64,000 nt of DNA, from assembly GCA_035686305.1 (NCBI GenBank), contig DASRZP010000063.1, positions 4,396 through 68,395 of the forward strand, written 5' to 3'. A program made the position numbers and the translations under genes. The notes beneath the pieces were generated by a model. It had not been told where the DNA came from and did no database searches. It was given only the letters and a program-made list of their open reading frames with translations. Positions 19,108 through 64,000 of the stretch are shown piece after piece (position 1 is the first letter of the stretch; every line of letters begins with the position of its first letter). This DNA is from Thermodesulfovibrionales bacterium. GTDB taxonomy: Bacteria > Nitrospirota > Thermodesulfovibrionia > Thermodesulfovibrionales > UBA9159.

Positions 19108-19118
19108 AGGGAGGTTTT

Positions 19119-20433: not shown

Positions 20434-20462
20434 TTGATATGGATGGACATATGAGGTATAAT
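20434..20462 (+). promoter_or_regulatory. sigma70-type promoter upstream of dnaA
   Basis: TTGATA (20434..20439), a 17-nt spacer, then TATAAT (20457..20462). It lies about 100 nt upstream of the dnaA ATG. Confidence 0.5.
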
Positions 20463-20480
20463 ACGAAACCCTCTCAAAGG

Positions 20481-20517
20481 AAGTTATTAACATACGTTAA
20501 TAACTTGTTAATAAAAG
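20481..20517. repeat. AT-rich palindrome plus a third half-site in the dnaA leader
   Basis: AAGTTATTAAC-ATAC-GTTAATAACTT is a perfect 11-bp inverted repeat. It is immediately followed by GTTAATAAAAG. Confidence 0.8.
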
Positions 20518-20562
20518 AACCCAGGCACGGTACATTGAGAGATTTTTGTTGACACCACAGAT

Positions 20563-21894: not shown

Positions 21895-21906
21895 GGAGGC
21901 TCTGAG

Positions 21907-23007: not shown

Positions 23008-23042
23008 GAGCTGTCCGTGAGGAAGCCAGAATCGAAAGGTGA

Positions 23043-25529
<2,487 letters not shown>

Positions 25530-40553: not shown

Positions 40554-40568
40554 TCTGGTGTACTGACA

Positions 40569-42913: not shown

Positions 42914-42917
42914 CTGA

Positions 42918-46529: not shown

Positions 46530-46617
46530 TAGGGTCCCCGGAATTCAAGAAGCCGCAGGGGTTGCCATGATCTCCGGGGACAGAAGAGATCGTCTCCTCC
46601 AGCCAGACGAGAACGGG

Positions 46618-48435
46618 TCAGGAGAGAGCATGACCGCCCTGTTTGCGCGTACGCATCCTGTCCAGACTCTTTTTGAAGACCCGGAGCGAATTCAGTTCAA
46701 CGGTGGTCTTGTTGCAGGTCATGTTCCTCCCATGCCTTCGGACGATGAGGGTCACGGCTTCCAGTCTCCTGATGGGCAGCTTCAATTCCTGTGCCCGCGT
46801 AAACCAGTCCGTGTCTTCACCAAAGAGCAGGGTTGGATCAAAGAGCCCCACCTTTGTGAAGGCCGATCTCCGGAACAGTGCCGCTCCGATAGAATAGGGA
46901 AAGGATTCTGCCGGATTTCCACTGTATTCATATTCACGGGTTGCGTCGGTGTAGTGAGCGAGCTGGGCGTAACCATGTATGACATCAATCTCCTCGTCTT
47001 GCAACAATTCCTTTACGAGCATCGGGAGGTTGTTCTTCGGCCACAGGTCATCGACGTCGTTGAAGGCGACAAATTCGCCTGTTGCTTCTATGACCCCTTT
47101 ATTCCTTGCTGTTGCAGGGCCGTGGTTATCCTGATAGAAATATCGGATTTCCGTCGGCAACTGTTCAACGATATCCCTGGTCTTATCGGTGGAACCATCG
47201 TCGATGATGATGATTTCCAAGGAAGGATAGCCCTGAGACAGGATATTCTCCACCACTTCCCGGATGAAGGGTTCACCATTGAATACCGGGATGATGACGC
47301 TTACCACCGGCCATACTCTTGGAGAGGCGTGTGGTTCCGGAGCGCTATCGTACCTCCTCGGGACGCCTGCAGCGCTTTCACGAGCGAGGGTTTGTAAAAC
47401 CTCGGAAAGAGCGACCGGGATATGCGCAAGATCGCGGCCGAGTTCGAGATTGAAGCACGGGAGGCTTGCCGACAGCTGATTGAGAAACTCATAGGTCTTA
47501 ATGCCGGCGCCGGGCAGCTGAGTCATCGTCGTGAAGGATGCTGCCCGAAGAATGTTTTCTGAAGATGTTGTCGTGAGCCGCGACTTGTCGTTGCCTGAAA
47601 TATGGGGGACGATGACCGCCTTCAGGGGCATCGCCTTCATGATCTGACCGCTGAATGCGGGATGGAGAAACATGACCGCCTTCTCATCCTTGAGGTTCTT
47701 GGTGTTCGAAATGAACCGGCCAAATTCGGGGAAATGTTCGACATGGTCGGCATTGAGTTTTGCGGTGTTATATAAGCTGAATGCGCAGGGTTCCGGCTTC
47801 AGCCGTGCCACGATGTAATCGTCACCGAGATAAAAGAGGCCCGATTTTAGAGAGGAGAGAGCCGTCGTTGATTTACCGATCCCTCCCTTACCTGTCAAGA
47901 GAACGGCACCCCTTTCCGTTCCGACGGCTGCTGCGTGAACAAGCTGGCATTCGTTCTTCTCCAGCCACCAGTGGAGTAAAGTCCTGAGGGGTGCGGCATT
48001 CAGCCAGGAAGGAAGACCTGCAGCATGGTCTACCCAAAAGAGACCCCTCCTTGCTTCAAGGTCCATCATGTTCAGGGAGAATTCAAACCAGTGGAAGGCG
48101 GTCTTAATCCTGCTGCTGTTATACCCCCAGATGTCTCCCCGGTACGTGTACCGGTCGCGCTTCCATGGCGGGGGAGGCATGTTGGTATTCGTTGATGTGC
48201 TGTCCCATAAACAGATGGTCAAATCAGGCGCCTCGATTTGAGGTATCCTGAGATGACTGAAAGCGGGTGTGATATGGTGAATTAATGCCCGGCCTGCAAA
48301 GGAGAGGCGGAGGGTAGTGTCGCATATCCGGTAATAGAAATCGATCTCCCCGGCAGACTCCCTTGCTTCCAGGTATCGATGATAGACATTCTGAAAAAAT
48401 GCTACCTGTTCTTCTACCGTTTCTAAGGTGTCCAA
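46618..48435 (-). CDS. fusion protein: HprK-related P-loop (HPr-kinase-C-like) domain plus family 2 glycosyltransferase
   Basis: aa ~170-215: LVHAAAVGTERGAVLLTGKGGIGKSTTALSSLKSGLFYLGDDYIV (HprK-C-like P-loop followed by DD). aa ~375-605: VVSVIIPVFNGEPFIREVVENILSQGYPSLEIIIIDDGSTDKT...FNDVDDLW...VFKKSLDRMR. The GT2 part belongs to the same subfamily as the stand-alone GT2s. Confidence 0.75.
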   Translation of the reverse strand: MDTLETVEEQVAFFQNVYHRYLEARESAGEIDFYYRICDTTLRLSFAGRALIHHITPAFSHLRIPQIEAPDLTICLWDSTSTNTNMPPPPWKRDRYTYRGDIWGYNSSRIKTAFHWFEFSLNMMDLEARRGLFWVDHAAGLPSWLNAAPLRTLLHWWLEKNECQLVHAAAVGTERGAVLLTGKGGIGKSTTALSSLKSGLFYLGDDYIVARLKPEPCAFSLYNTAKLNADHVEHFPEFGRFISNTKNLKDEKAVMFLHPAFSGQIMKAMPLKAVIVPHISGNDKSRLTTTSSENILRAASFTTMTQLPGAGIKTYEFLNQLSASLPCFNLELGRDLAHIPVALSEVLQTLARESAAGVPRRYDSAPEPHASPRVWPVVSVIIPVFNGEPFIREVVENILSQGYPSLEIIIIDDGSTDKTRDIVEQLPTEIRYFYQDNHGPATARNKGVIEATGEFVAFNDVDDLWPKNNLPMLVKELLQDEEIDVIHGYAQLAHYTDATREYEYSGNPAESFPYSIGAALFRRSAFTKVGLFDPTLLFGEDTDWFTRAQELKLPIRRLEAVTLIVRRHGRNMTCNKTTVELNSLRVFKKSLDRMRTRKQGGHALS

Positions 48436-48472
48436 GGACTATTCCCGATGGCAGGGATCGTTAACGAGACAG

Positions 48473-48946
48473 TCATTGCCTGTTGACGGGAAGGTCATCC
48501 CGGGAGCTTGGCCAGCCTGTTTCATCGACGTCATGAATCGGGTCCAGCAAGAGAAGGTCCTGCATATCGGTGTATTTATGTAACACGGGGTGCACGAAGA
48601 TTTCCGGACCTTCACGGTGGCTTGCTGCTTCGCAGCCGGCACGACCGAGGGCCTCTTCACTTCCCCCCCCTTCGTCCGTTACAATGAGATCCTCCCGTTG
48701 TAGTTCGCTCATCAGCCGATTGAGAGCCTCTTCTATCTCGCCTCTGTCAGCCCTGTACCGACCTGCAATCCATTCGATGATTCCGTTGAGATCGAAGCTT
48801 CTGTTGATAAGTCCCCATATGTCCGCGCCCGCCCCATCAAGACTGTAATAGTTGCCGCTATCAAGATGGACCAGGACGGTCTCTCCGTCAATGGTCTCAT
48901 GGATGACTTTAGGACTATTGATCCTGAACCGTGAACCCTCTGTCAT
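48473..48946 (-). CDS. PqqD-family (RRE-type peptide-binding) protein with a C-terminal extension; first gene of the operon
   Basis: N-terminal ~95 aa: FRINSPKVIHETIDGETVLVHLDSGNYYSLDGAGADIWGLI...IIEWIAGRY...EIEEALNRLMSELQREDLI, the PqqD pattern (beta strands, then .lN.tg..iW.l., then helices). An extra ~60 aa ends ...HKYTDMQDLLLLDPIHDVDETGWP... Confidence 0.75.
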   Translation of the reverse strand: MTEGSRFRINSPKVIHETIDGETVLVHLDSGNYYSLDGAGADIWGLINRSFDLNGIIEWIAGRYRADRGEIEEALNRLMSELQREDLIVTDEGGGSEEALGRAGCEAASHREGPEIFVHPVLHKYTDMQDLLLLDPIHDVDETGWPSSRDDLPVNRQ

Positions 48947-49159: not shown

Positions 49160-49296
49160 CACAAATCCTCCCTCTTTCTCTCCGGAAGCAGAACGTTCTC
49201 AAGATGAACCGTTGGGATCAAAGTCCTCTCGAGGACGCGGAACCGGCCTCTAGAGCGGGCATCGATGACGGAGGCATCAAGAGAAAGGGGCGAAAT

Positions 49297-49335
49297 GTTA
49301 CAATTCTGTTACGATACCGTGAATATTCCGTTACA
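49297..49335 (+). promoter_or_regulatory. Pho-box-like array: 4 half-sites at 11-bp phasing
   Basis: GTTACA (49297), GTTACG (49308), GTGAAT (49319), GTTACA (49330). Upstream of response regulator 1. Confidence 0.6.
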
Positions 49336-49384
49336 TCCTTGTAGCCTCTTGCATCCTTATGCCCTCAAATGGTATATGTACAGC

Positions 49385-50083
49385 ATGAACAATGCAAAGA
49401 TCCTGATCGTCGATGACGAGCCTGATATCGTAGAACTCGTTTCTTATAACCTTACGAAAGAGGGGTTCGAGGCATTGTCAGCCTCAGACGGGAAGGAGGC
49501 CCTCGATAAGATCAGGGCAGGCGATCCTAACCTTGTTATCCTTGACCTCATGCTCCCTGGGATACAGGGCATGGAGATCTGTCGAATTTTACGCAATGAC
49601 CCACGAACGAAGAGCATACCGATCATCATGCTTACCGCAAAAGGAGAAGAAGTGGACAAGGTTCTCGGCCTTGAGCTCGGTGCTGACGACTACATAACAA
49701 AGCCCTTCAGTCCACGGGAGCTCCTGGCAAGGGTTAAGACCGTCATGAGAAGGACATCGAAAAAGGCGATCGATGATAAGGTTGTCCGAATAGGGAACCT
49801 GACGATCAACAAAGAGACCTATTCCGTGAGAAAGAATGACAGAGTTTTGGATCTGAGTTCCACCGAGTTCAGGCTTCTTCTCTATCTTGTTGAGAGAAGG
49901 GGGAAGGTTTTCAGCCGTGATCAGCTTCTCGACGCGGTCTGGAAGGATGAGGCCTTTGTAGAGCCGAGAACCGTAGACGTCCACATCAGGAGACTGCGCA
50001 CCCACGTCGAGGACGACCCGGCAAACCCCAGGTACGTAAAGACAAAGAGAGGAATCGGTTATTATGTCGACGGAGAAGCATGA
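49385..50083 (+). CDS. PhoB/PhoP-like OmpR-family response regulator (paralogue 1)
   Basis: KILIVDDEPDIVEL...LVILDLMLPGIQGMEICRILRNDPRTKSIPIIMLTAKGEEVDKVLGLELGADDYITKPFSPRELLARV...VDVHIRRLRTHVE...VKTKRGIGYYV. I trimmed the start to ATG 49385. Confidence 0.85.
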   Translation: MNNAKILIVDDEPDIVELVSYNLTKEGFEALSASDGKEALDKIRAGDPNLVILDLMLPGIQGMEICRILRNDPRTKSIPIIMLTAKGEEVDKVLGLELGADDYITKPFSPRELLARVKTVMRRTSKKAIDDKVVRIGNLTINKETYSVRKNDRVLDLSSTEFRLLLYLVERRGKVFSRDQLLDAVWKDEAFVEPRTVDVHIRRLRTHVEDDPANPRYVKTKRGIGYYVDGEA

Positions 50084-51816
50084 CGAAGAGAATCTTCAGA
50101 CGAATCTTCGTAATCTATGCCGTTATCGTTCTCCTCGCAGGGGTTGTCGGCGAGATCTATATTACCTCGGCTGTCAGAGATAACCGTATTGCCGTTCTGA
50201 GACAGCACCTTGAAGATTCAATAGGGCTCCTTTCTCCCGGCATATCCTTTACCAACGGCAACCTTGACGCCTTCTGCAGGGGGGTAAAGGAAAAGGTCCA
50301 TGCCCGTGTCACCATAATACGGATCGATGGAAGGGTGATCGGCGATTCTGACCACGAATCTGCATCTATGGATAATCACGCACATCGCACGGAGATCCAG
50401 AAGGCGGCCAATTTTGGGATCGGCATGAGTATTCGTCACAGCGATACGTTACACGAAGATTTGCTCTATGTCGCACAGAAGATGGCACGAAGCGGAACCG
50501 ACGCAGGATACATCAGGCTTGCGGTGCCGTTGCAGAGTATTTATCGCTCGGTAAATCTCCTCAGGCTAAGGATGATCCTTGCTGTGTCGGCGGTGCTGCT
50601 CGTAACATGGGGAGTCTCAGTATGGCAGATCTCCCATCTGAAGAGACTTCTCAAGGAGATCACGGGTTTCTCACGGTCCCTCTCGCGGGGTGAGATAGAC
50701 AAGAGACTCTTTCTCGACAAGGCGGGGGAATTCAGCGAGATTGCAGATAATCTGACCGCCATGTCGGTCACCCTGCAGGGCATGATGTCGCAAAGCGAAG
50801 AGGAGAGGAATCGTCTGAACGTTATTCTCAAGAGCCTTCCTGATGCATTGCTCATCATGGATGGGAAGGGCATGATCACCCTTTCGAGCTCTTCAGTAAA
50901 GGATTTTTTTGGAGACGTTCCTGCGGCAGGGACGGGGTTTGCAGAAGTGGTGCGAAATCACGAGTTGGCTGATCTCATCGACGAGGCACGGAAGACCCTT
51001 GCTCCGGGCACGGCTGAATTCAGCATCGAAACACCGGAGGAAAAACATCTCATGGCGAGGGTCTCCCCGCTTTTTTATCGAGGAAGTGAGCTTTCAGGGT
51101 TTGTCGCGGTATTTCACGATATCACCGAGATCAAGAAACTCGAACAGGTGAGAAAGGATTTTGTTGCCAACGTCTCCCATGAACTGAAGACCCCGATTAC
51201 CGCGATCAAGGGCTTTGCCGACACGCTTCTCGACGGCGCGCTCGGAGACCAGGAAAATGCAACACGGTTTGTCCAGACCATCAGGTCGAACAGTGAGCGT
51301 ATCAACGCCCTCGTCGATGACCTCATGATCATCTCCAAGATCGAACTTGGGGTCATAAGGGTCGAGAAGTCTCTCATCGATATCGGAGGGGTCTTCGAGA
51401 ATATCGTGGAGCTTTTCAAGGCAAAAGCGGCTTCAAAGAATCTTTCTCTGGAAATTCACGGGGATCAGACCATCGGCCAGATCGAGGCAGACAGGAACCG
51501 CCTCATCCAGATTCTGACCAATCTCGTCGACAATGCAGTGAAGTTCACGGAAACGGGAAGGGTGACGTTCGGCATCGACAGAGAGGAAGACGGAAAGCCC
51601 TTTCTCTTTGTGGAAGATACGGGCATCGGTGTCCCTGCCAAGTTCCTATCGAGGCTCGGCGAGAGGTTCTTCAGGGTGGACCTCGCACGATCGAGAAAGA
51701 TGGGAGGGACAGGACTCGGCCTCGCAATCGTCAAGCATCTTGTGAAGGCCCACGGATGGCATATGCAGTTCGAGAGTGTGCAGGGCAAGGGCACCCGCGT
51801 GAAGATCATCATTTAA
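50080..51816 (+). CDS. PhoR-like sensor histidine kinase (TM-sensor-HAMP-PAS-HisKA-HATPase)
   Basis: FVANVSHELKTPITAIKGFADTL (H-box), NLVDNAVKFT, DTGIGVPAKFLSRLGERFFRVD, GGTGLGLAIVKHLV. ATGA overlap with regulator 1. Confidence 0.8.
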   Translation: MTKRIFRRIFVIYAVIVLLAGVVGEIYITSAVRDNRIAVLRQHLEDSIGLLSPGISFTNGNLDAFCRGVKEKVHARVTIIRIDGRVIGDSDHESASMDNHAHRTEIQKAANFGIGMSIRHSDTLHEDLLYVAQKMARSGTDAGYIRLAVPLQSIYRSVNLLRLRMILAVSAVLLVTWGVSVWQISHLKRLLKEITGFSRSLSRGEIDKRLFLDKAGEFSEIADNLTAMSVTLQGMMSQSEEERNRLNVILKSLPDALLIMDGKGMITLSSSSVKDFFGDVPAAGTGFAEVVRNHELADLIDEARKTLAPGTAEFSIETPEEKHLMARVSPLFYRGSELSGFVAVFHDITEIKKLEQVRKDFVANVSHELKTPITAIKGFADTLLDGALGDQENATRFVQTIRSNSERINALVDDLMIISKIELGVIRVEKSLIDIGGVFENIVELFKAKAASKNLSLEIHGDQTIGQIEADRNRLIQILTNLVDNAVKFTETGRVTFGIDREEDGKPFLFVEDTGIGVPAKFLSRLGERFFRVDLARSRKMGGTGLGLAIVKHLVKAHGWHMQFESVQGKGTRVKIII

Positions 51817-51851
51817 CCGAAATGTAACAGTGCTTTCACACTGTCGTAATG
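51813..51851 (+). promoter_or_regulatory. Pho-box-like array: 4 half-sites at 11-bp phasing
   Basis: TTAACC (51813), GTAACA (51824), TTCACA (51835), GTAATG (51846). It starts on the kinase stop codon, upstream of regulator 2. Confidence 0.6.
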
Positions 51852-51901
51852 CTTCCCGCGGTATCCTTATCCACAATCGTATCAGGAACGAAGGTAGATC
51901 T

Positions 51902-52621
51902 ATGTCGCGACAGGACGCACAGAAAATTCTTGCCGTGGACGATGAGCAGGACATCATAGAGCTTCTCGCCTATAATCTTTCCATCGATGGTTTTGAAGTA
52001 ACGACGGCGGCGGACGGGGAGGAGGCCCTGAAGAAGATCAGGGCGATGAGTTTCGATCTCGTTATCCTTGATCTCATGATGCCCGGCATACACGGAATGG
52101 ACCTCTGTCGTATTCTGAGGAATGACCCGAAAACAAAGAACCTCCCGATTATCATGCTCACGGCAAAGACTGAGGAAGTGGACAGGGTTCTCGGCCTTGA
52201 AATGGGCGCTGATGATTACGTAACGAAACCCTTCAGTCCGAGGGAATTGACTGCACGTATAAAGGCCGTTCTGAGACGCTCGACAAGGAACGTGCCCGAA
52301 TCCAGGTACATCACCATCGGCAACCTCACGATCAATACGGAAACCTATTCTGTTGCCAAGGACAATGTCCCTCTGAATCTCAGTCCCACGGAATTCAGGC
52401 TCCTCCTGTATCTCGTTGAACGGAGGGGCAAGATATTTAATCGTGAGCAGCTCCTCAATGCCGTCTGGAAGGACGAAGGATATGTCGAACCAAGGACCGT
52501 TGATGTCCATGTGAGCCGGATCAGAATGCAGATTGAAGAGGACCCGGCGAATCCTCTCTATATCAAGACAAGGAGGGGGCATGGCTACTATTTTGATAAC
52601 ACCGTTCCCGAAGGCAAATAG
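51902..52621 (+). CDS. PhoB/PhoP-like OmpR-family response regulator (paralogue 2)
   Basis: KILAVDDEQDIIEL...LVILDLMMPGIHGMDLCRILRNDPKTKNLPIIMLTAKTEEVDRVLGLEMGADDYVTKPFSPRELTARI...VDVHVSRIRMQIE...IKTRRGHGYYF. Collinear with paralogue 1 throughout. Confidence 0.85.
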   Translation: MSRQDAQKILAVDDEQDIIELLAYNLSIDGFEVTTAADGEEALKKIRAMSFDLVILDLMMPGIHGMDLCRILRNDPKTKNLPIIMLTAKTEEVDRVLGLEMGADDYVTKPFSPRELTARIKAVLRRSTRNVPESRYITIGNLTINTETYSVAKDNVPLNLSPTEFRLLLYLVERRGKIFNREQLLNAVWKDEGYVEPRTVDVHVSRIRMQIEEDPANPLYIKTRRGHGYYFDNTVPEGK

Positions 52622-52801: not shown

Positions 52802-54046
52802 ATGAAGGAACCACCGGAGGAGCCATTTCTCTGGGGTGTCGCCACTTCCGCCTTTCAGCTTGAAGGCTCGCCCAATGCAGACTGGTCGTCCTGGGATACG
52901 ATCCTGAGTAAGAAACCGGCGGTGACAAACCATTATGAGCTGTACCGGGAGGATCTTGCCCTCCTGAAAGACCTTGGTGTGAATGCCTATCGCTTTTCCC
53001 CCGAATGGAGCAGGATACAACCGCGTGAGGACAGCTGGGATGAAAAGGTCATCCGTCACTATCAGGAGATTATTGAGATCCTTAAGAGATACGGCATCGA
53101 GCCGATGTTGACCCTCCATCACTTTACCCATCCCCTCTGGTTCATAAAGAGATATCCCTGGCACGAAGATGCGTCAGTGGATACCTTTCTTGCCTATGTA
53201 AAGCGTATTGTCGCAGCAATAGGCGGCGTAACTTATTGGATAACCTTTAACGAGCCCTATGTCCTCATCCTCGCAGGGTACTTTGAAGGGTGCACGCCTC
53301 CGGCGATAAAGAGTGTGCAGCTGGGTGTCAGGGCCTTGGCAAATATTCTGAGGGCTCACGCAGGGGCATTCGAGATCATCCATGATGCTCACCCCAACGC
53401 AAGAGTGAGCGTGGCCCATAATATGGCTGCCCTTGCCCCCTGGAAGAAATGGAATCCCCTGGACAGGCTCCTTGCGCGACTTGCGAAACGCTTCTATAAT
53501 CACTCCCTCCTCGATGCCTTTCTGACCGGGTCACTGAAGATCAAGTTTCCCTTCAAGGAAGAAATGGAGATTCCCGTTCCCATCAAAGGCAAGCTCGACT
53601 TTTTCGGCGTTAATTACTACACGAGGATCCACATGCGGTTCAATCCCCTGAAGACGATGGGAGCGGAGATGAGACACCTTGACATTGGCGGTCATGGCCT
53701 AACCGACATGGGGTGGGAAATCCATCCTCATGGCCTCGAGAAGGTCCTCCGCTACGCCACAAAGCTCGAAGTCCCCCTCATCATAACCGAAAATGGCATC
53801 GCCACAAAGGACAGCCAGAAGAAGATACGCTTCATGCAGAACCATATCGATGTGATGGAGCATTGCAAGAAAGAGGGAATGGATATCAGGGGCTATTTCT
53901 ACTGGTCCCTCATCGACAACTACGAGTGGCTCCAGGGACTCGATGCACGCTTCGGGCTTTACAAGGTAAACTTTGAGACCCTCGAACGTATACCCACGAA
54001 CGCAGCCGCATATTATTCCTACCTCATAAAAAACAGGAAGTTTTAG
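52802..54046 (+). CDS. GH1-family beta-glucosidase/glycosidase
   Basis: FLWGVATSAFQLEGS, acid/base motif WITFNEPYV, nucleophile motif LIITENGIA, and C-terminal YFYWSLIDNYEW. I trimmed the start to ATG 52802. Confidence 0.85.
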   Translation: MKEPPEEPFLWGVATSAFQLEGSPNADWSSWDTILSKKPAVTNHYELYREDLALLKDLGVNAYRFSPEWSRIQPREDSWDEKVIRHYQEIIEILKRYGIEPMLTLHHFTHPLWFIKRYPWHEDASVDTFLAYVKRIVAAIGGVTYWITFNEPYVLILAGYFEGCTPPAIKSVQLGVRALANILRAHAGAFEIIHDAHPNARVSVAHNMAALAPWKKWNPLDRLLARLAKRFYNHSLLDAFLTGSLKIKFPFKEEMEIPVPIKGKLDFFGVNYYTRIHMRFNPLKTMGAEMRHLDIGGHGLTDMGWEIHPHGLEKVLRYATKLEVPLIITENGIATKDSQKKIRFMQNHIDVMEHCKKEGMDIRGYFYWSLIDNYEWLQGLDARFGLYKVNFETLERIPTNAAAYYSYLIKNRKF

Positions 54047-54199
54047 CCGGTCTCCCTTCTCACCGCCAAGACCCCTGCCGATGAGCCGAGGGTCGGACCG
54101 GACTGCCCGTCGTTGGCCGGAGAGATGGAGGGGGTACCCGGCCTCCTCCGTTCAGGGGCGGAAGATAATGATACTATGCCTGCCCTTCAGGTTTCACAT

Positions 54200-54238
54200 T
54201 TAACCATAATGTAACGCCAATTTCATCATACTGACATG
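54200..54238 (+). promoter_or_regulatory. Pho-box-like array: 4 half-sites at 11-bp phasing
   Basis: TTAACC (54200), GTAACG (54211), TTCATC (54222), GACATG (54233). A candidate -10 TATGAT lies at 54248. Upstream of the PHP gene. Confidence 0.6.
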
Positions 54239-54291
54239 TTTACTGCCTATGATATAAGCCATGATGATTATCTATCGAACCAAGCAGATCC

Positions 54292-54984
54292 ATGCTGCTG
54301 TGTGATTTCCATATTCATACAACCTATTCTGACGGCTCAGTGGAGCTGAGGAGGACAGTCGATCTTTTCGGACAGGCAGGCTTTGATGTCATAGCGATAA
54401 CAGACCATGTCGTTAATGGCGACAACCCGCTCGGCAAACTCGCCCACCGGTTTCGGCTTTCCGTAACAGCCGCCAACTTCGAAGAATATATCGAAGACAT
54501 AAAAGAGGAAGCTGAAAGAGCCCAGGCCAAATACGGCATGCTCGTCATTCCCGGAATTGAGATAACCAAGAACCATCGTACCACAGATACTTCAGCCCAC
54601 ATCTTGATCATTGACGTCCAGGACTTTATTCCCGCCTGCATGAGTTATGAAGAGATATTTCTCGAGGCGAAAAGGCAGAAGGCCCTGACGATAGCCTGCC
54701 ATCCGCACTACATGTCGGCGATGACTGACAGGGATACCCTCTTTCTCTGGAACAACAGGGAACGGTATGCGCGCTACATCGACGCCTGGGAGATCGCCAA
54801 CCGCGATGATGTGTTTAACGTTATTAGCCTGAAGAAGTATCCCTATGTTGCGAACAGCGACTTCCACAAGCCGAGGCACCTCTATTCGTGGAAGACACTG
54901 CTCAACTGCGAGAAGGATACCGCTTCCATCAAGGAATGTATAAAACACAACAAGGGTGTCGCACTCACACTCTTCAGGAATTAG
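54292..54984 (+). CDS. PHP-domain metal-dependent phosphoesterase
   Basis: LLCDFHIHTTYSDGS (PHP motif I), AITDHV, ILIIDV, IACHPH. Confidence 0.75.
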   Translation: MLLCDFHIHTTYSDGSVELRRTVDLFGQAGFDVIAITDHVVNGDNPLGKLAHRFRLSVTAANFEEYIEDIKEEAERAQAKYGMLVIPGIEITKNHRTTDTSAHILIIDVQDFIPACMSYEEIFLEAKRQKALTIACHPHYMSAMTDRDTLFLWNNRERYARYIDAWEIANRDDVFNVISLKKYPYVANSDFHKPRHLYSWKTLLNCEKDTASIKECIKHNKGVALTLFRN

Positions 54985-54987
54985 GAG

Positions 54988-56214
54988 GTGATGATGCTAC
55001 TATTCTGGACATTTGCGTGCCTGACGCTCTTCGGGATAATCGGATATCTGTTTCAAATGGCCGCTGTTCGGTCATATGTCTTCCCCCCCGACTCAGGGGA
55101 AAGCGCAGGCTTTCCCCGATCTTATCCTCCTGTCTCAATCCTCAAACCTCTCAAGGGTCTTGATGACGGGCTTTTTGACAACCTCGAAAGCTTCTGCAAT
55201 CTTGATTATCCCCGCTATGAGATCATCTTTGCCCTTCAGAACCGGAATGATCCTGCCCACAAGGTCGTACAGAAGATAAGGGAAAAATACCCGTCCTGCG
55301 ACATATCGATCGTTGTGGAATTTTGCGATGCCGGACTTAACCCCAAAGTCAACAACCTAATCCCCGCTTATAAACGGGCGAGACACGACCTCATACTCAT
55401 CAGCGACAGCAATGTGCGTGTCGAGAAGGATTATCTGAAGGATACGGTGAGGCATATGGCCGACCCGTCGGTGGGGCTGGTCAGCAATATTATCAGGGGC
55501 GTCAGGGGCCGTTCCCTCGGCGCGGTCTTTGAGAACCTCCACCTGAATTCCTTCGTCGTCGGCAACGTCTGCCTCCTGGACCGGTATCTCGGCATGCCAT
55601 GTGTGGTAGGCAAATCCATGCTCATGAGAAAGGATGATCTCGAATCCATCGGCGGATTGTATACGGTGAAGGACCTCCTTGCTGAAGACTATATCATGGG
55701 TGAGCGGATACATGCTCTCGGCAAACGAGTCGTTCTCTCCGGTCACGTCATCAACAACGTGAATGAGGACTGGGGCATCGGAAAGTTTCTGGGGAGGCAC
55801 ATCCGGTGGGGCAAACTGAGATGGAAGATCGGGGGCGCCAAGTACTTCTTTGAACTTGTCAGCAACACGATCGTGGTGGCGTGCTTACCCCTCATATTTT
55901 CCCCGGTCACAACTGGGGCGCTCCTCCTGGCAGGTTTCACAGGAGTGGTGAAGATTGCCCGTGATTTCTACCTGGGCAGGAAGATCGGGGCGGATATGAA
56001 ACCTTTCCTCTATCTGCTCGCTCCCGCCAAAGACCTCTTCATCGGAATCATCTGGATCTTTCCTATCCTGAGCAATACCGTAACGTGGAGGGGGAACCGC
56101 TACCAGATCGGGAAGAACTCGATGCTCTATCCCTGTCCCGAGACGGGGCTCAAGGTCTGGAAGCCAAGGATTATGACCGTGATAAAGACACGACTGGCGT
56201 TGTCAAAGTTCTAA
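54988..56214 (+). CDS. GT21-like membrane glycosyltransferase (ceramide-glucosyltransferase / processive lipid GT / HpnI-like)
   Basis: PPVSILKPLKGLDDGLFDNLESFCNLDYPRYEIIFAL, GLNPKVNNLIPAY, LILISDSNVRV, GKSMLMRKDDLESIGG, RHIRWGKLRW, and several TM segments. The GTG start is 4 nt after the PHP gene and has SD TAGGAGG. Confidence 0.7.
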   Translation: MMMLLFWTFACLTLFGIIGYLFQMAAVRSYVFPPDSGESAGFPRSYPPVSILKPLKGLDDGLFDNLESFCNLDYPRYEIIFALQNRNDPAHKVVQKIREKYPSCDISIVVEFCDAGLNPKVNNLIPAYKRARHDLILISDSNVRVEKDYLKDTVRHMADPSVGLVSNIIRGVRGRSLGAVFENLHLNSFVVGNVCLLDRYLGMPCVVGKSMLMRKDDLESIGGLYTVKDLLAEDYIMGERIHALGKRVVLSGHVINNVNEDWGIGKFLGRHIRWGKLRWKIGGAKYFFELVSNTIVVACLPLIFSPVTTGALLLAGFTGVVKIARDFYLGRKIGADMKPFLYLLAPAKDLFIGIIWIFPILSNTVTWRGNRYQIGKNSMLYPCPETGLKVWKPRIMTVIKTRLALSKF

Positions 56215-56228: not shown

Positions 56229-56429
56229 ATGACGCAACACTATGCGATATCTTACCGTGACCTGGGCGAGGAACATGCTTGCCCGTTCAGCGACAAGGAG
56301 ACCAATATCTGTTCAGCGTCCCTTTCATCCATGATCATCGGCAGGCACAAGGACCAGATCTACTGTTCCAGCGACAATTATGACAACTGCCCGATGTTCC
56401 TCTCAAAGATTCTGAGAAAGAGGGGCTGA
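56229..56429 (+). CDS. small four-cysteine protein (66 aa), paralogue 1
   Basis: ATG 56229 is preceded by AAGGAAGGAGG. Sequence: MTQHYAISYRDLGEEHACPFSDKETNICSASLSSMIIGRHKDQIYCSSDNYDNCPMFLSKILRKRG. Cys pattern CP-x9-C-x17-C-x7-C. It is hidden inside the longer track ORF 56085..56429. Confidence 0.5.
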   Translation: MTQHYAISYRDLGEEHACPFSDKETNICSASLSSMIIGRHKDQIYCSSDNYDNCPMFLSKILRKRG

Positions 56430-56512
56430 TCTTGCCGGTTACAGAATCTTAACCGTTTTGTAATGTATTTTTAACAAAAGATTCTTTATTATAGTTCCCG
56501 AAGGAGGTAACG

Positions 56513-56716
56513 ATGACAACGCTCGGATTTGTCTTCTGCCCGAATCTCAGGGGCAGCATGGAAGGGATAAAATGTGGTATTACGAATAACCTCATCAGGG
56601 ACATGGACGACGTTTCACCCAAGCTCTGTATGAGCAGGAGGCACGAAGCATGTGCCATATATATGCAGTCCCTGCAGCTTATGATTGAATGCGGTTCATA
56701 TACCAACTGCGCGTAG
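56513..56716 (+). CDS. small four-cysteine protein (67 aa), paralogue 2
   Basis: The ATG is preceded by GAAGGAGGT. ...FCPNLRGSMEGIKCGITNNLIRDMDDVSPKLCMSRRHEACAIY... Cys pattern CP-x11-C-x17-C-x7-C. Confidence 0.5.
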   Translation: MTTLGFVFCPNLRGSMEGIKCGITNNLIRDMDDVSPKLCMSRRHEACAIYMQSLQLMIECGSYTNCA

Positions 56717-56980: not shown

Positions 56981-58345
56981 ATGCAGCAAGCAGAATGCCT
57001 CAGGCCTCTTTGCTCTGACGGAGGTTCACCCGACGTGCCGGTTCCGGACCAGACCGTTGAAAAACGGCTGAAGAAGAAGATATTCGTCCTGGACACGAAC
57101 GTACTGATCCATGATCCAAGCTCCCTCTTCAGGTTCGGCACCCATGATGTGGTGATACCGTTTGTTGTTTTAGAGGAGCTCGACAGGCTCAAGAAAGGGC
57201 ACGGAGAGAAAGCGGTATCGGCGCGGAGCGCGCTCAGGATCATTGACCGTTTAACGGAGAAGGGCCCGTTGATGAAGGGCATCGCGATGGAAACAGGCGG
57301 TCTCCTTTCCATCGGCATCACGTTAAGCAGCGTCCCCACTGCCTTCATGGACGGCGTCACCGAGGATAACGCGATCATAAAGACGGCCCTCGGCGTCGTG
57401 GAACAGCAGCAGACCGACGGACGAGGAAATATGGTACCCGTCACCTTGGTCTCCAAAGACACGACGGTGAGAATAAAGGCCGAGGCATGTGGTCTCCACG
57501 CGGAAGACTACGAGAGCGATAAAACGACCATCTTCCAGAAGTATGGACGGGTGCTGGAAGAATCCGATTACACGAACGGCATTCATTCCATACGGTACGT
57601 GAAGTCAGGGGAAGAGGTCTTCAGGCTGCAGGGCTGCAGCGCCCACACAAAGATCAAGAACGGAAAATCTCTGGAAGGCATTGCACCAAAAAATATCGAG
57701 CAACGATGCGCGATCGATGCGTTAATAAACCCTGACATCGAGGTCGTTGCCCTTACCGGCTCTGCGGGAACGGGGAAGACCCTTCTCGCCCTTGCCGCGG
57801 GGATACACCAGACCACAAAGAAATCACCCTTGTATGAGCAGGTCGTGGTGGCGCGACCGGTTGTCCCCATGGGCAATGATATCGGGTATCTGCCGGGGGA
57901 CGTGAACGAAAAGCTGACACCCTGGATGCAGCCGATCTTTGACAGCCTGGAGGTGATCGTCAACACGCCGAAAGGGCATATCAAGGATGATCGATCAACA
58001 GCACAATACCGGAGCTTTCAGTACCTCATCGATGCGGGTGTGCTTCAGATCGAGGCATTGACCTATATCCGCGGACGGAGCCTTCCCCAGCGGTATTTCA
58101 TCGTGGATGAAGCTCAGAATCTGAGGCCCGTCGATGTCAAGACGATCATTACCCGGTGCGGAGAAGGCACGAAGATCGTCTTTACCGGTGACCTGAACCA
58201 GATCGATACGCCCTATCTGGACGCAAAGAGCAACGGCCTTGCTTACCTCATCAGCCGCTTCATTGATGAGGAGAATTTCTGTTATCTGAACCTTCACTCC
58301 AGCGTCAGATCGAGGCTTGCAGAACAGGGCGCACGACTGCTGTAA
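56981..58345 (+). CDS. PIN-domain + PhoH-like ATPase (YlaK type)
   Basis: PIN: KIFVLDTNVLIHDPSSLFRFGTHDVVIPFVVLEELD. PhoH: ALTGSAGTGKTLLALAAG, FIVDEAQNL, TGDLNQID. SD GGGAGG. Confidence 0.85.
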   Translation: MQQAECLRPLCSDGGSPDVPVPDQTVEKRLKKKIFVLDTNVLIHDPSSLFRFGTHDVVIPFVVLEELDRLKKGHGEKAVSARSALRIIDRLTEKGPLMKGIAMETGGLLSIGITLSSVPTAFMDGVTEDNAIIKTALGVVEQQQTDGRGNMVPVTLVSKDTTVRIKAEACGLHAEDYESDKTTIFQKYGRVLEESDYTNGIHSIRYVKSGEEVFRLQGCSAHTKIKNGKSLEGIAPKNIEQRCAIDALINPDIEVVALTGSAGTGKTLLALAAGIHQTTKKSPLYEQVVVARPVVPMGNDIGYLPGDVNEKLTPWMQPIFDSLEVIVNTPKGHIKDDRSTAQYRSFQYLIDAGVLQIEALTYIRGRSLPQRYFIVDEAQNLRPVDVKTIITRCGEGTKIVFTGDLNQIDTPYLDAKSNGLAYLISRFIDEENFCYLNLHSSVRSRLAEQGARLL

Positions 58346-59495: not shown

Positions 59496-59640
59496 GAGCT
59501 GAGATGCAATAAGAAACGAGCTGCTGCTCATCGCCTCAAAGGACTCAAGGGATTGGAGGGTGATCATTGATTACCCTTCCAGCCCCGGGATCGTTCCTTG
59601 GCCACATTCTTCTTGCTTTCCCGCACGTTACAATCACAAT

Positions 59641-59679
59641 TTAACGATTCTTTCATAGAACTGACATATTTCTGTAACA
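59641..59679 (+). promoter_or_regulatory. Pho-box-like array: 4 half-sites at 11-bp phasing
   Basis: TTAACG (59641), TTCATA (59652), GACATA (59663), GTAACA (59674), followed by TATGAT (59681). Upstream of the porin gene. Confidence 0.6.
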
Positions 59680-59763
59680 ATATGATGCTAAGCTGATAGC
59701 ATCGTATTGGACCCATTACAGGAACAGTTTATAAAGCACCTACCTTGCCAAAGGAGGTTCTGG

Positions 59764-61116
59764 ATGAAAAGAAGATGGTCCGCTTTTATCCTTGGGTTAT
59801 GTTGCCTTCTCCTGTCAGCGGGGGTATCAGAGTCTGCAAGCATCACGAATCCTATTCTGAAGAAGCTTGTGGAAAAAGGTATTCTCTCCGAGCAAGAGGC
59901 TCTTGAAGTAATGCAGGATATGGAAAAAGAGATACGGGAGAAGGACAAAGCAACAGAAGTCAAGATTGAAGAGAAGGTTGCCGAGAAGGTCAGTGAGACA
60001 GCGCCTGCGGAAAAGAACGAGGAGATCGATAAAATTGTGAAAGCCTTCAAAGGTCTTAAGTTCAGCGGCCTCTGGTACCTCTCTTATGGTTATGGAAAGA
60101 CAGGAGGCATACCAAGCGGTGCGCAATTCAACAATTTTAATGTAAAACGAGGGTATTTCACCTTAGAAAAGGAGCTCTTTCCATGGTTGTCAGGCCGGAT
60201 GACAACTGATGTGACGACGGTGAATCTGAAGACACAGAATCTTGGACCTGGTGAGAATGTCTCTCTCAACGTCAACGGCTCCCTGGCGGTAAGAATAAAG
60301 TACCTTTATGCTCTCGTTACCCCTCCGGATTTGGCATTTCTCACCAAACCGGGCGCTGAAGTCGGCATTGTGCACACGCCGTGGCTTGATTTTGAAGAGC
60401 ACATAAATTATTACCGTTTGCAGGACACGATGTTTATCGAAAGAAACGGCATCATGAGTTCAGCGGATTACGGCGTAACCTTTGCCGCGCTCTTAGGTGG
60501 GCTCATGGATGAGAGTTATCGTAAAAATGTCAATCCCTCATATCCTGGCAGCTACGGGAGCATTCAGGCAGGAATTTATAATGGCGGAGGATACACGACG
60601 ACCGAGCAGAACAGGAATAAGGTGCTCGAGGGACGGATAACCGTCAGGCCTCTACCCGACATTATCCCGGGACTTCAGCTCTCGTATTTTGGGGTGACGG
60701 GCAAGGGCAACGTTGCCGCGCACCCCAATTGGACCGCAAATCTTGCATTCGGCAGTTTTGAGCACGAATACTTTGTCGTGACAGGGCAGTACTTCTGGGG
60801 GGATGGGAACGCCCAGGGATCGGATCAATTCCAGAAGAGAGGTTATTCCCTGTTTACGGAACTGAAGCCTTTTATTGAATTGAAGTTCCCGCTTGAGAGA
60901 TTCACTCTCATTGGTCGCTTCGACCACTTTAATCCCAATAAGAATGTGAGCGATGCCTTGTCAGGGGAAAACAACAGGTATATTGTAGGTATAGCTTACA
61001 GTATAGACAGACTGCATAATAACATGGTCCTCCTCGATTACGATAATGTAGAATACAAGCAACCGGGAAAGACACGTGATGAGAGAATACAGCTGACGTT
61101 GCAGGTGGCTTTTTAG
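59764..61116 (+). CDS. outer-membrane beta-barrel porin, phosphate-selective (OprO/P)-like
   Basis: Signal peptide MKRRWSAFILGLCCLLLSAGVSESA. N-terminal helical/charged segment (ILKKLVEKGILSEQEALEVM...). Alternating beta-strand pattern and a C-terminal ...IQLTLQVAF (terminal Phe). SD AAGGAGG. The family call is by eye. Confidence 0.65.
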   Translation: MKRRWSAFILGLCCLLLSAGVSESASITNPILKKLVEKGILSEQEALEVMQDMEKEIREKDKATEVKIEEKVAEKVSETAPAEKNEEIDKIVKAFKGLKFSGLWYLSYGYGKTGGIPSGAQFNNFNVKRGYFTLEKELFPWLSGRMTTDVTTVNLKTQNLGPGENVSLNVNGSLAVRIKYLYALVTPPDLAFLTKPGAEVGIVHTPWLDFEEHINYYRLQDTMFIERNGIMSSADYGVTFAALLGGLMDESYRKNVNPSYPGSYGSIQAGIYNGGGYTTTEQNRNKVLEGRITVRPLPDIIPGLQLSYFGVTGKGNVAAHPNWTANLAFGSFEHEYFVVTGQYFWGDGNAQGSDQFQKRGYSLFTELKPFIELKFPLERFTLIGRFDHFNPNKNVSDALSGENNRYIVGIAYSIDRLHNNMVLLDYDNVEYKQPGKTRDERIQLTLQVAF

Positions 61117-61238
61117 TCTGCTTTGGTGCTTGCGGCAGTTGTCGCCCTTTCCGGCCGACATGGACGGGATCCTCTACCGCGGGAAATGGAACGACCTGAC
61201 CTGATATATGCGCGGCTGCTAAAGCATGGCGAAGAAAT

Positions 61239-61277
61239 GTTACAAAAATTTAACATTCCCTTCATGTAGCCGTAACA
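61239..61277 (+). promoter_or_regulatory. Pho-box-like array: 4 half-sites at 11-bp phasing
   Basis: GTTACA (61239), TTAACA (61250), TTCATG (61261), GTAACA (61272), then TATAAT at 61287..61292. Confidence 0.6.
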
Positions 61278-61303
61278 ATAGGGCGTTATAATTAATATTA
61301 GAT

Positions 61304-61603
61304 ATGCTGGCAAGCATAGCAATGGATCAAGTGACAGAAATACGATGCCCCTCCTGCGAGGGTGATGCAGTGTACCGTTACGGCAGGATAAAGACCGGTG
61401 CCCAGCGGTTCATCTGCCTCGTTTGTGGCATGCAGTTTACCCCCGGGGCAAAGAAGGCGTTGCTCAAGGGTAAGCCGCTCTGTCCGGAGTGTGGCAAGAC
61501 AATGAATGTCTATAAGCTTGAGGGACTGGTCATACGTTTCAGATGCTCGGGCTATCCTGTTTGCAAGACGTTCAGAAAATACACCATGAAGGAGGAAGAA
61601 TGA
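61304..61603 (+). CDS. double zinc-ribbon protein
   Basis: CPSCEG...CLVCG and CPECG...FRCSGYPVCKT: two CxxC pairs per ribbon, the second resembling a topoisomerase-type C4 finger. The start is close to the -10 element, so the transcript may be nearly leaderless; ATG 61322 is the alternative. Confidence 0.55.
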   Translation: MLASIAMDQVTEIRCPSCEGDAVYRYGRIKTGAQRFICLVCGMQFTPGAKKALLKGKPLCPECGKTMNVYKLEGLVIRFRCSGYPVCKTFRKYTMKEEE

Positions 61604-61971
61604 GCTATTACCTGCATAATGTCCCCGGTCGACTCAGAGTAAAGAGCCCCCTCTTAAAGAGAAACAGTGATGCGGGAGAGGAACTGAAAAAGGCGCTGAG
61701 TACGATTCAGGGCATCGCAACCGTTGACTTTAACCCCGTGACAGGAAGTCTCCTGGTCAACTATAACCATAGGACAACGAAGCAAGAGGACATCATCTCT
61801 CTGCTTGAGCGCAAGGGGTATTTCGACCGGGGGAGGGCGACGACGAATGAAGACTATATTCATGTCGCAGCCGAAAAGACCGGACGCCTCGTCGGCAAGG
61901 CAGTGCTTGGAATAGCGATCGACAAGGCCCTTGAAGGTACCGCGTTGTCACTCATCGGATTGCTGATTTAG
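61600..61971 (+). CDS. HMA-like (GRLRV-type) metal-associated domain protein with C-terminal hydrophobic helix
   Basis: MSYYLHNVPGRLRVKSPLLKRNSDAGEELKKALSTIQGIATVDFNPVTGSLLVNY. ATGA overlap with the upstream gene. Confidence 0.5.
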   Translation: MSYYLHNVPGRLRVKSPLLKRNSDAGEELKKALSTIQGIATVDFNPVTGSLLVNYNHRTTKQEDIISLLERKGYFDRGRATTNEDYIHVAAEKTGRLVGKAVLGIAIDKALEGTALSLIGLLI

Positions 61972-62233
61972 TTTTTGAACGGAGGATTTCGAGGTCCTTT
62001 CTGATCTCATCGCCTAAGTATTTTCCCTTTTCTGCCAGTAGTTTTCTTTTATCGATCATTCTTTCGACTCTTTCTCGGCTCCAGGAGGTCCCTTCCCTTC
62101 GTGGCGGGCAGTTAAACACCTTCAGACGTACCATGGCTGCTTTGAATTTCAGGGCTCTTTCCTCGGAGCAGCCGCAGAGGCAGGTAATGATCGAATCATT
62201 GGACAAGGCATGTACAGCGTATTAAAGTAGGCC

Positions 62234-63076
62234 ATGGATACTCAACCGCAAAAAATTGTTCTCTCCCTGACGATCGCGTACTTCTTTATCGAGCTCAGCG
62301 GTGGACTCTATTACCGGAGCCTCGCCCTCGTCACGGACGCATCTTTTATGGCCATCAATGTCGTGGGCCAGGCGCTCGCCTTGTTAGCGGGCAAGCTCTC
62401 CGAGAGGCTGCCGGACAGAGACAACACCTTCGGATATGAGAGGGCAAAGGTCCTGTCGGGGCTTTTCAACGGGATACTCGTGGGATTCCTCATTTTCTAT
62501 GTTCTCATAGAAGCATACAAGAAGATCATGCACCCCGAGCCCATTGCCGCAGACAAGGTACTGATAATAGCCATTCTCGGCCTCGCGGTGAATGCATATG
62601 GATTATTCAGGTTCAAAGAGCATGCGAACCTCATGCATATCAAGGGCGCGAGGCTTCTTGTTCTCAACGACACCTTGGGATCAGTGGGTGTTATAACCTC
62701 GTCCGTTCTTATCCATTTTACCGGTCTCTACCTCCTCGATCCCCTTGCCGGGGTTCTCATCAGCCTCCTCGTGGGATATCCAACCTACTACCTGATAAAA
62801 GACAGCCTGCGTATCCTAATGGAGGGTAACCCCTCCTCCTTCACCGGAGAGGACATAGAGAAGTTCATCTACAGGAACTTTCAGAACGTCAAACGTGTGA
62901 AGGATCTCCATATATGGGGGTTATCTACGGAGAGGATCATCTGTGTCGCAAGGGTCAGGACCGCCGGACCGATAGACCACAGGGACACGGTGAGAAGCAT
63001 GAAGCATCGTCTCATGAAGCATTTTGGATTCTCCGATGTCTTTGTTGAGGAATATGAAGCAGGAGATGAGAAGTGA
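62234..63076 (+). CDS. cation diffusion facilitator (CDF) metal efflux transporter
   Basis: Six TM segments. ALVTDASFMAINVVGQALAL and LNDTLGSVGVI (the D/H sites of TM2/TM5), plus a C-terminal cytoplasmic domain ...VKDLHIWGLS. Confidence 0.8.
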   Translation: MDTQPQKIVLSLTIAYFFIELSGGLYYRSLALVTDASFMAINVVGQALALLAGKLSERLPDRDNTFGYERAKVLSGLFNGILVGFLIFYVLIEAYKKIMHPEPIAADKVLIIAILGLAVNAYGLFRFKEHANLMHIKGARLLVLNDTLGSVGVITSSVLIHFTGLYLLDPLAGVLISLLVGYPTYYLIKDSLRILMEGNPSSFTGEDIEKFIYRNFQNVKRVKDLHIWGLSTERIICVARVRTAGPIDHRDTVRSMKHRLMKHFGFSDVFVEEYEAGDEK

Positions 63077-63898: not shown

Positions 63899-63957
63899 GA
63901 ACGCGCTCCTCCTCCAAAAGATATTGTGCGGTATCGGCACTAGTATAACAACGGTGC

Positions 63958-63995
63958 TTTGCAGGAGTATTACACGCCGGTGAAATTTCGGTTAC
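63958..63995 (-). promoter_or_regulatory. Pho-box-like array: 4 half-sites at 11-bp phasing (minus strand)
   Basis: The minus strand reads GTAACC (63995), TTCACC (63984), GTAATA (63973), GCAAAG (63962), then TATACT (63947..63942). It is almost identical to the array at 51824 (TGTAAC..TTTCAC..GTAAT). Confidence 0.6.
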
Positions 63996-64000
63996 AAGGA

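Follow-up and report, generated by a model that had tools for sequence, protein, structure and literature searches.

When phosphate is scarce many microbes replace phospholipids with phosphorus-free lipids, a major adaptation that is also the basis for using intact polar lipids as environmental signals. The diacylglycerol-releasing step has so far been tied to the phosphoesterase PlcP: operons in which plcP accompanies a glycosyltransferase gene under Pho-box control are established (PMC4796936), and Pgt, a Pho-box-controlled glycosyltransferase of family GT21, glycosylates diacylglycerol, its preferred acceptor, and also accepts ceramide (PMC3972451). In phosphate-limited fluids, the occurrence of monoglycosyl diether lipids and of glycosyl ceramides follows that of Thermodesulfovibrionia (PMC10667739). 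Here we describe a 64,000-nucleotide stretch of the genome of a Thermodesulfovibrionales bacterium (contig DASRZP010000063.1, positions 4,396 to 68,395; hereafter the window) in which a gene for a PHP-domain protein, predicted to be a phosphoesterase, is followed by a gene for a GT21 membrane glycosyltransferase, both behind a Pho-box array (Table 1). In our estimation the chances are evenly balanced that the pair forms the core of a Pho-regulated phospholipid-to-glycolipid module with a phosphoesterase non-homologous to PlcP.

Both reading frames lie where the first-pass annotation of the window had placed them, but the 3-nt gap reported between them holds only if GTG 54988 is the GT21 start codon. 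An AGGAGG ribosome-binding site overlaps the TAG stop codon of the PHP gene (54982..54984), which makes ATG 54991 or ATG 54994 the more likely start; ATG 54991 is the start recorded for an identical database protein. From this overlap the two genes are predicted to be translationally coupled, and no terminator-like site was found at the junction. The 66-aa open reading frame (ORF) that follows, which has no match in Pfam or NCBIfam, is probably the third gene of the operon.

The arrangement is widely conserved. The best protein hits of the window carry the names Thermodesulfovibrionales or Nitrospirota; exact-match look-ups of genomic context for the window PHP protein (P0121) and for P0398 gave no hit. 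Our data span 64 kb for this genome and 20-kb flanks for the related loci; the genome scan, made with a narrower PHP alignment, returned Nitrospirota only, and the taxa given below for other groups of PHP proteins are names from a protein search. Of 79 Nitrospirota genomes, 77 have the GT21 gene directly after the PHP gene and in the same orientation, with a median gap of 13 nt, as do 29 of 32 Nitrospirota-type metagenome loci; the median gaps are 13-15 nt overall. A GH1 gene lies within 3 kb upstream of the PHP gene on the same strand in 54/72 genomes, and phoB/phoR upstream and pstSCAB-phoU downstream of the operon are frequent in related genomes. In a subclade (14 of 69 genomes) the gene directly after GT21 encodes a 617-aa OlsF-like protein, whose alignment to the model for OlsF, a bifunctional aminolipid synthase, is full-length (E=9e-118; 394 bits, below the cut-off of 620). 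In loci without GT21, the place after PHP is taken by the OlsF-like gene (locus L079) or by a gene for a receiver-kinase and then pstS (L122, L129). Two further variations were seen. Between GH1 and PHP, three loci (L002:6863-8713, L006 and L015) carry a gene whose 616-aa product begins with a signal-peptide-like sequence and weakly matches CehA/McbA metallohydrolases; a Pho-box array precedes this gene in all three. L004 has a partial second PHP copy (7161-7697), 88% identical to the full gene and ~2.3 kb upstream of it.

The array reported at 54200 is real. It comprises four hexamers (TTTAAC at 54199, TGTAAC at 54210, TTTCAT at 54221 and TGACAT at 54232) with an exact 11-bp period, which we take to be the classic Pho-box geometry, comparable to that of PhoB promoters in E. 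coli and of the PyTTAAPyPy(T/A) repeats of cyanobacteria. When the 160 nt 5' of each PHP gene were aligned for 80 related genomes (81 orthologous promoters), the four-unit array was found to be kept in 79 of the 81, with the consensus tTTTAACanAAAtTTAAtattncCTTaATaaTcCTGTAAC followed by TATnAT, the latter at equal offset in most of them. No canonical -35 element is present upstream of the PHP gene, and a sigma-70 scan detected no plus-strand promoter (-35/-10 pair) there, as is expected of a Pho-box promoter, which lacks a -35.

To put a score on the array we used a 46-nt matrix trained solely on the orthologous PHP promoters. The array upstream of PHP-GT21 scored 30.2 bits, against a maximum of 3.5 bits when the whole window was Markov-shuffled 30 times. 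The same matrix identified 24 arrays of 20-43 bits 5' of pstS in 19 of 28 related loci, the promoter-proximal one lying 29-90 nt 5' of the start codon in each locus, with a second array 254-300 nt upstream in several. Seven sites were found in the window, every one at a promoter position. Because a matrix trained on PHP promoters recovers the pstS arrays and further sites in the window, we conclude that the array is the Pho box of this clade and predict that it is bound by the phosphate-responsive regulator; the PHP-GT21 pair would then be induced at low phosphate. The Pho-box-like control of the operon suggested in the first-pass annotation is thereby upheld: the same array precedes pstS in related genomes and, within the window, both the OlsB-like gene and phoB2-GH1. 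Counted over the related loci, strong arrays most often precede PHP, pstS, members of two small-ORF families, a Zn-ribbon gene, olsB, GH1 and phoH2. The GC-rich spacer between GH1 and PHP folds no better than its shuffles (z = -0.68).

The PHP protein is, as first read, of the PHP class and not of the calcineurin-like class to which PlcP belongs. Its sole Pfam match is the PHP domain PF02811 (E=1e-08), and among solved structures it is closest to TM0559 of Thermotoga maritima (PDB 2ANU), a structural-genomics protein to which it aligns over its full length (E=5e-61). Nine metal ligands (H7, H9, D14, H39, E90, H103, H137, D190 and H192) do not vary among 28 homologues of 33-56% identity, nor do four family-specific residues (Y66, Y81, E167 and W200), and from the ligands the protein is predicted to have a complete trinuclear metal site and to be a phosphoesterase. 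Among its nearest relatives outside Nitrospirota (search clustered at 50%) are many proteins of 640-680 aa with a C-terminal PHP domain and an N-terminal MGDG_synth/GT28 region. Such glycosyltransferase-PHP fusions number 2002 in Verrucomicrobiota at E<=1e-20, Methylacidiphilum and Chthoniobacterales included, and their PHP part is 44-49% identical. The top family matches of the N-terminal half are MGDG_synth and the diglucosyl-diacylglycerol synthase UgtP, the latter along its length; in a structure model this half has Arabidopsis MGD1 as its best solved match (TM-score 0.83, E=3e-18), ahead of MurG, whilst the C-terminal half matches 2ANU at a TM-score of 0.89.

Fusion to an MGD1-like enzyme ties the PHP family independently to the diacylglycerol-glycosylation step, and the links to OlsF and OlsB, together with the common Pho box, connect it with the exchange of lipids driven by phosphate. 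We put only slightly short of even the chance that TM0559-type PHP proteins are an unrecognised family of lipid phosphoesterases, either phosphatidate phosphatases or phospholipases C, that feed glycolipid synthases. A weak hint of interfacial binding may be seen in the insertion at residues 40-62, which is hydrophobic and basic in glycosyltransferase-fused members, intermediate in the window protein and polar in one Thermotoga-type homologue (P0257).

PHP domains are found with other glycosyltransferases too. In other lineages (L138, L150) a GT2 gene precedes the PHP gene with a gap of 2 nt, and the 762-aa protein encoded at L144:9177-13565 (minus strand) combines GT4 with a PHP-type N-terminus of a different kind, its gene adjoining a second GT4 gene and genes for an LPG-synthase-type membrane protein and a PHP-receiver protein (PHP-REC). 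The association of PHP domains with four glycosyltransferase families (GT21, GT28, GT2 and GT4) would also suit a reversed order of reactions, in which the glycosyltransferase acts on a phosphorylated acceptor and the PHP protein then dephosphorylates the product, as in the sucrose-, trehalose- and glucosylglycerate-phosphate pathways; synthase-phosphatase pairs and fusions are common. We know, however, of no phosphorylated glycolipid intermediate of that kind. GT21 and MGD1/UgtP-type enzymes take neutral lipid acceptors (PMC3972451, and the structural match to MGD1) and the window GT21 is, by hydropathy, an integral membrane protein, and we consider a reversed order very unlikely.

A number of observations weigh against a lipid substrate for the PHP protein and against the module as a whole. 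The first concerns calcineurin-like phosphoesterases. In loci L112-L115 an operon (e.g. L113:7242-10715) lies between pstCAB-phoU and phoRB-pstS; after PHP it encodes a calcineurin-like phosphoesterase and then two acyltransferases, one of PlsC type and one an OlsB/FeeM-like N-acyltransferase, with a NUDIX gene behind them. A calcineurin-like phosphoesterase gene likewise follows PHP in L110; in these loci the enzyme stands beside PHP and has not simply been replaced by it, so that phospholipase C can be only one among several phosphoesterase roles for PHP. Secondly, some PHP paralogues (~40% identity) carry a receiver domain, with or without HisKA-HATPase, in the same polypeptide (L059:9761-11689, L148:9620-11530, P0280 and the PHP-REC proteins of L143/L144), which hints at a role in sensing. 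Thirdly, the Verrucomicrobiota fusions sit in a housekeeping context without pho genes, and the fusion model (pTM 0.70) defines no domain interface; with the linker disordered, a fixed interface cannot be claimed. TM0559 itself, although it has the same nine metal ligands as the window protein, is encoded next to carAB, in a neighbourhood free of glycosyltransferase and Pho genes. The GT21 protein is 27-29% identical to HpnI and 31% to the human ceramide glucosyltransferase UGCG but only 22-25% to PlcP-linked, Pgt-like proteins. Finally, no PHP-family enzyme is known to us to act on a lipid, and a full-text literature search returned neither a lipid-acting PHP enzyme nor a function for TM0559. 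In a study of phosphate limitation in Desulfovibrio G20, Agt and OlsF were used and no PHP enzyme.

Two details belong beside these loci. The PHP-receiver-kinase fusion of L059 lies between phoB and pstS, where the OlsF subclade has a gene for a 363-aa receiver-kinase without PHP. The 372-aa metallophosphoesterase beside PHP in L113 was tried as a PlcP candidate, and the assignment failed (E=0.002).

The PHP protein might instead be a soluble phosphomonoesterase, acting on phosphoethanolamine, glycerol-3-phosphate, phosphocholine or another organophosphate, with the regulon and the role of GT21 unchanged and some other enzyme supplying the lipid anchor; linkage to GT21 would then reflect co-regulation and shared use of the products of a phospholipase. 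The substrates of characterised PHP enzymes are soluble phosphoesters, the window protein weakly matches histidinol-phosphatase, nucleoside-bisphosphate phosphatase and RNase families in NCBIfam, the separate calcineurin-like enzyme in L110 and L112-L115 could be the phospholipase C, and many distant homologues adjoin pstCAB-phoU without a glycosyltransferase. A soluble substrate offers no obvious reason, however, for fusion to an MGD1-like glycosyltransferase in >2000 proteins or for coupling to GT21 in ~97% of genomes, and no PlcP-type gene that might release the anchor lies within 10 kb in ~130 loci. On balance we think a soluble phosphatase unlikely.

The GT21 protein is a clear family member (Pfam PF13506, E=4.5e-47, 160.2 bits, gathering cut-off 21.7). 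Its motifs LKPLKG, NPK, DSN139, AEDY231 and RHIRW269 are intact and shared with the UGCG core (DxD-type, (Q/R)xxRW), and hydrophobic segments span residues 3-26, ~286-320 and ~339-360. The top curated match is the HpnI model TIGR03472 (255.6 bits, under the cut-off of 310); since a PlcP-linked GT21 protein also reaches 186 bits with this model, such sub-threshold matches are generic for the family. In a neighbour-joining tree, in which PlcP-linked alphaproteobacterial GT21 proteins stood in for Pgt and no authentic Pgt sequence was included, the Nitrospirota proteins form a clade of their own that adjoins HpnI on a short branch. A grouping with Pgt is therefore not supported: the protein does not group with the PlcP-linked, Pgt-like enzymes and is slightly nearer to HpnI and UGCG. 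Phylogeny alone does not settle the acceptor lipid, which could be diacylglycerol, diether glycerol or ceramide.

The position next to HpnI bears on an alternative raised in the first-pass annotation, that GT21 is an HpnI-type hopanoid glycosyltransferase; PHP would then act in the side-chain pathway, for example as a phosphoribosyl-hopane phosphatase. Besides the top curated model and the short branch, the best plasmid matches of the protein, which are hpnI genes, agree with this. True hpnI loci have hpnJ and hpnK alongside, however, and tblastn detected no homologue of hpnJ, hpnK or PlcP in the window or within 10 kb in ~130 related loci. Nor was any hopanoid gene (shc, hpnH) seen among the larger window ORFs scanned, and a full-text search on Thermodesulfovibrio and hopanoids returned nothing relevant to function. 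With the Pho box, the OlsF linkage and the MGD1-type fusion also left unexplained, the proposal fails the checks that could be made here, and a hopanoid acceptor is the least supported reading, with the slimmest of chances.

A ceramide acceptor deserves rather more attention. Here GT21 would be a ceramide glucosyltransferase deployed under phosphate stress, with PHP freeing ceramide from a phosphosphingolipid in the manner of a sphingomyelinase C. The closest solved structure is that of human ceramide glucosyltransferase (E=8e-49, 31% identity overall), and orthologues are labelled 'ceramide glucosyltransferase' in their source records. Ceramides with one sugar (1G-ceramides) have been linked to Thermodesulfovibrionia, with sphingolipid gene potential cited for Thermodesulfovibrio (PMC10667739), and phosphate-starved Caulobacter makes a glycosphingolipid (PMC6445935). 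Against this, neither the window nor the flanks showed a gene for sphingolipid synthesis, the fusion partner of PHP resembles the diacylglycerol-using MGD1/UgtP enzymes, and Pgt prefers diacylglycerol, though ceramide is accepted (PMC3972451). Taking both sides into account, we regard ceramide as an improbable acceptor.

For the phospholipid-to-glycolipid module, we envisage the following sequence of events. When phosphate is scarce, the PhoB-type regulator encoded just upstream would bind the Pho box, which would stand in for a -35 element ahead of TATGAT, and PHP, GT21 and probably the 66-aa ORF would be expressed as one translationally coupled transcript. The cytoplasmic PHP protein would remove phosphate or a phospho-head group from a glycerophospholipid or phosphatidic acid, to yield a neutral anchor (diacylglycerol or an ether analogue) and recoverable phosphate; its activity could be that of a phospholipase C or of a phosphatidate phosphatase, and the separate metallophosphoesterase in L110 and L112-L115 leaves room for a head-group phosphatase. 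Membrane-bound GT21 would then move a hexose from a UDP-sugar onto the anchor to give a phosphorus-free glycolipid, whilst aminolipid synthases of the OlsB/OlsF type, members of the same regulon, would supply the other class of replacement lipid. What the data show directly are the genes with their domains and catalytic residues, the conserved operon, the common Pho box and the fusion of the PHP family to a diacylglycerol-type glycosyltransferase; the substrate of PHP, the sugar, the acceptor and the response to low phosphate are inferred. The glycolipid-remodelling reading proposed at the outset is borne out in part, by the Pho box, the PHP-GT21 linkage, the OlsF association, the layout shared with PlcP operons and the fusion, and on regulation and the tie of PHP to glycolipids it is strengthened; a grouping with Pgt is not supported, and phospholipase C activity for PHP becomes one role among several.

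The surroundings of the operon in the window include several further genes behind arrays. The GH1 glycosidase and the OlsB-like gene, first picked out as fitting a lipid theme, were both confirmed by domain search, the latter aligning over its full length with the NCBIfam OlsB models (175 and 171 bits, cut-offs 350 and 320). Neither GH1 nor PHP has a hydrophobic segment; GH1 may be an SFR2-like transglycosidase. The regulatory genes at 49385..52621 comprise one PnpS/PhoR-like kinase flanked by two PhoB-like regulators, both slightly under the PhoB equivalog cut-off. On the minus strand, the cluster at 36354..48946 encodes GT2, GT4 and GT10 glycosyltransferases, a GlcNAc-2-epimerase-like protein and a nucleotidyltransferase; the array at 49291..49336 lies ~345 nt from the first minus-strand gene and therefore may serve phoB1 instead.

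Downstream of the operon, arrays precede the 67-aa small-ORF family in 19 of 25 loci; this ORF has no family match, and the idea that it and the 66-aa ORF are paralogues was rejected, the two having no mutual similarity. The strongest array precedes genes for a Zn-ribbon protein, an HMA_2 metal-binding protein and a CDF cation-efflux transporter (61304..63076), with a homologous Zn-ribbon gene behind arrays in 11 related loci, which suggests that the phosphate regulon is linked to metal handling. Behind the 24.8-bit array, the ORF at 59707..61116 (450-469 aa) has no meaningful family match and may encode an envelope protein. Further away, 15072..25529 carries genes for SelB and apolipoprotein N-acyltransferase and dnaA-dnaN-gyrB; the window probably adjoins the replication origin region. 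The sole match in an Rfam scan of the window was a tRNA (17170..17242, minus strand).

Table 1. Positions of the PHP-GT21 operon, its promoter and associated features in the window
Feature	Position	Strand	Basis or remark
Pho-box array upstream of PHP-GT21	54198..54243	+	30.2 bits against the 46-nt matrix; replaces -35 element
-10-like hexamer TATGAT	54248..54253	+	10 nt past last Pho-box unit; read from sequence
PHP-family trinuclear-metal phosphoesterase (predicted)	54292..54984	+	230 aa; Pfam PHP; TM0559 (2ANU) subfamily
AGGAGG ribosome-binding site	54983..54988	+	Read at PHP-GT21 junction
GT21 membrane glycosyltransferase	54988..56214	+	Pfam GT21; 407 aa from likely start ATG 54991
66-aa Cys-containing ORF	56229..56429	+	Starts 15 nt 3' of GT21; homologues after GT21 in 46 related loci
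phoB-like response regulator (phoB1) and PnpS/PhoR-like histidine kinase	49385..51816	+	NCBIfam PhoB 282 bits, PnpS 360 bits
Second PhoB-like response regulator (phoB2)	51902..52621	+	NCBIfam PhoB 267.9 bits, cut-off 296
GH1 beta-glycosidase, cytoplasmic	52802..54046	+	Pfam GH1 E=1e-81
67-aa Cys-rich ORF	56513..56716	+	Behind 18.2-bit array; conserved in 25 related loci
PIN-PhoH2	56981..58345	+	PhoH2 domains
OlsB-like N-acyltransferase (aminolipid synthesis)	63110..63940	-	Pfam Acetyltransf_5; Pho-box array upstream
Array, Zn-ribbon, HMA and CDF genes downstream	61237..61282	+	40.6 bits
Array, OlsB-like gene downstream	63952..63997	-	34.9 bits
Array, phoB2-GH1 downstream	51811..51856	+	34.6 bits
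Array, 450-aa ORF downstream	59639..59684	+	24.8 bits
Array, PqqD-like gene and glycosyltransferase cluster downstream	49291..49336	-	20.7 bits
Array (weaker), 67-aa ORF and PhoH2 downstream	56436..56481	+	18.2 bits

The main interest of the locus lies in the candidate new family of lipid phosphoesterases, systems of this type being otherwise known from PlcP operons. Should the proposal prove correct, a second, unrelated phosphoesterase family would extend predictions of lipid remodelling to Nitrospirota and Verrucomicrobiota, and TM0559, a thermostable, crystallised protein whose orphan structure was solved about twenty years ago, would acquire a testable function. It would also point to the likely genes behind the phosphorus-free glycolipids of Thermodesulfovibrionia in phosphate-poor anoxic settings, and suggest where the glycosyl-glycerol and glycosyl-ceramide lipids that accompany these organisms in serpentinising, phosphate-limited fluids originate genetically. 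The Pho box (four units, consensus approximately TTTAAC/TGTAAC, in 11-bp phase) makes regulon prediction possible across the order.

How, then, does the locus compare with the systems already described? HpnI, the bacteriohopanetetrol glucosamine glycosyltransferase, is of the same family as the window GT21, which differs in scoring below the HpnI cut-off, in lacking hpnJ and hpnK as neighbours and in being preceded by a Pho box. UGCG shares the catalytic-core motifs; the window enzyme is bacterial, Pho-box-preceded and in an operon with a phosphoesterase gene. The Verrucomicrobiota fusions join the same PHP subfamily to a lipid glycosyltransferase, but the partner is a GT28 enzyme of GT-B fold and not a GT-A GT21, and the two activities reside in a single polypeptide of housekeeping context. 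The GT21 gene of S. fredii NGR234 pNGR234b (L169:1705-4544), tried as a PlcP-linked example, was set aside, the gene upstream being a 483-aa ORF instead, presumably of CYTH/CHAD type to go by its N-terminal sequence.

The closest parallels are with Pgt and the PlcP operons. Like Pgt, the processive enzyme of Agrobacterium and Mesorhizobium, the window GT21 is an integral membrane enzyme with a Pho-box promoter and a proposed neutral-lipid acceptor (PMC3972451), although the PlcP-linked stand-ins for Pgt form a separate clade. On plasmids of Gemmobacter, Fuscovulum and Pannonibacter, the gene for an LpxH-like (PlcP-type) phosphoesterase, with calcineurin-type metal-binding motifs in the Gemmobacter protein, overlaps the GT21 gene downstream. 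The PlcP-Agt/Pgt operons of Alphaproteobacteria and SAR11 similarly have the phosphoesterase gene immediately 5' of that for the lipid glycosyltransferase with a Pho box upstream (PMC4796936), and ornithine-lipid genes are linked to them under the Pho box (PMC3972451). The window module differs in adding a conserved GH1 glycosidase and small Cys-containing ORFs, and above all in the phosphoesterase, which has the PHP fold and is not calcineurin-like or LpxH-like. The idea that PHP is a non-orthologous replacement for PlcP needs qualifying for those lineages in which it sits beside a calcineurin-like enzyme; in the window, the layout of a PlcP operon with PHP in the phosphoesterase slot is the pattern to be expected of non-orthologous displacement.

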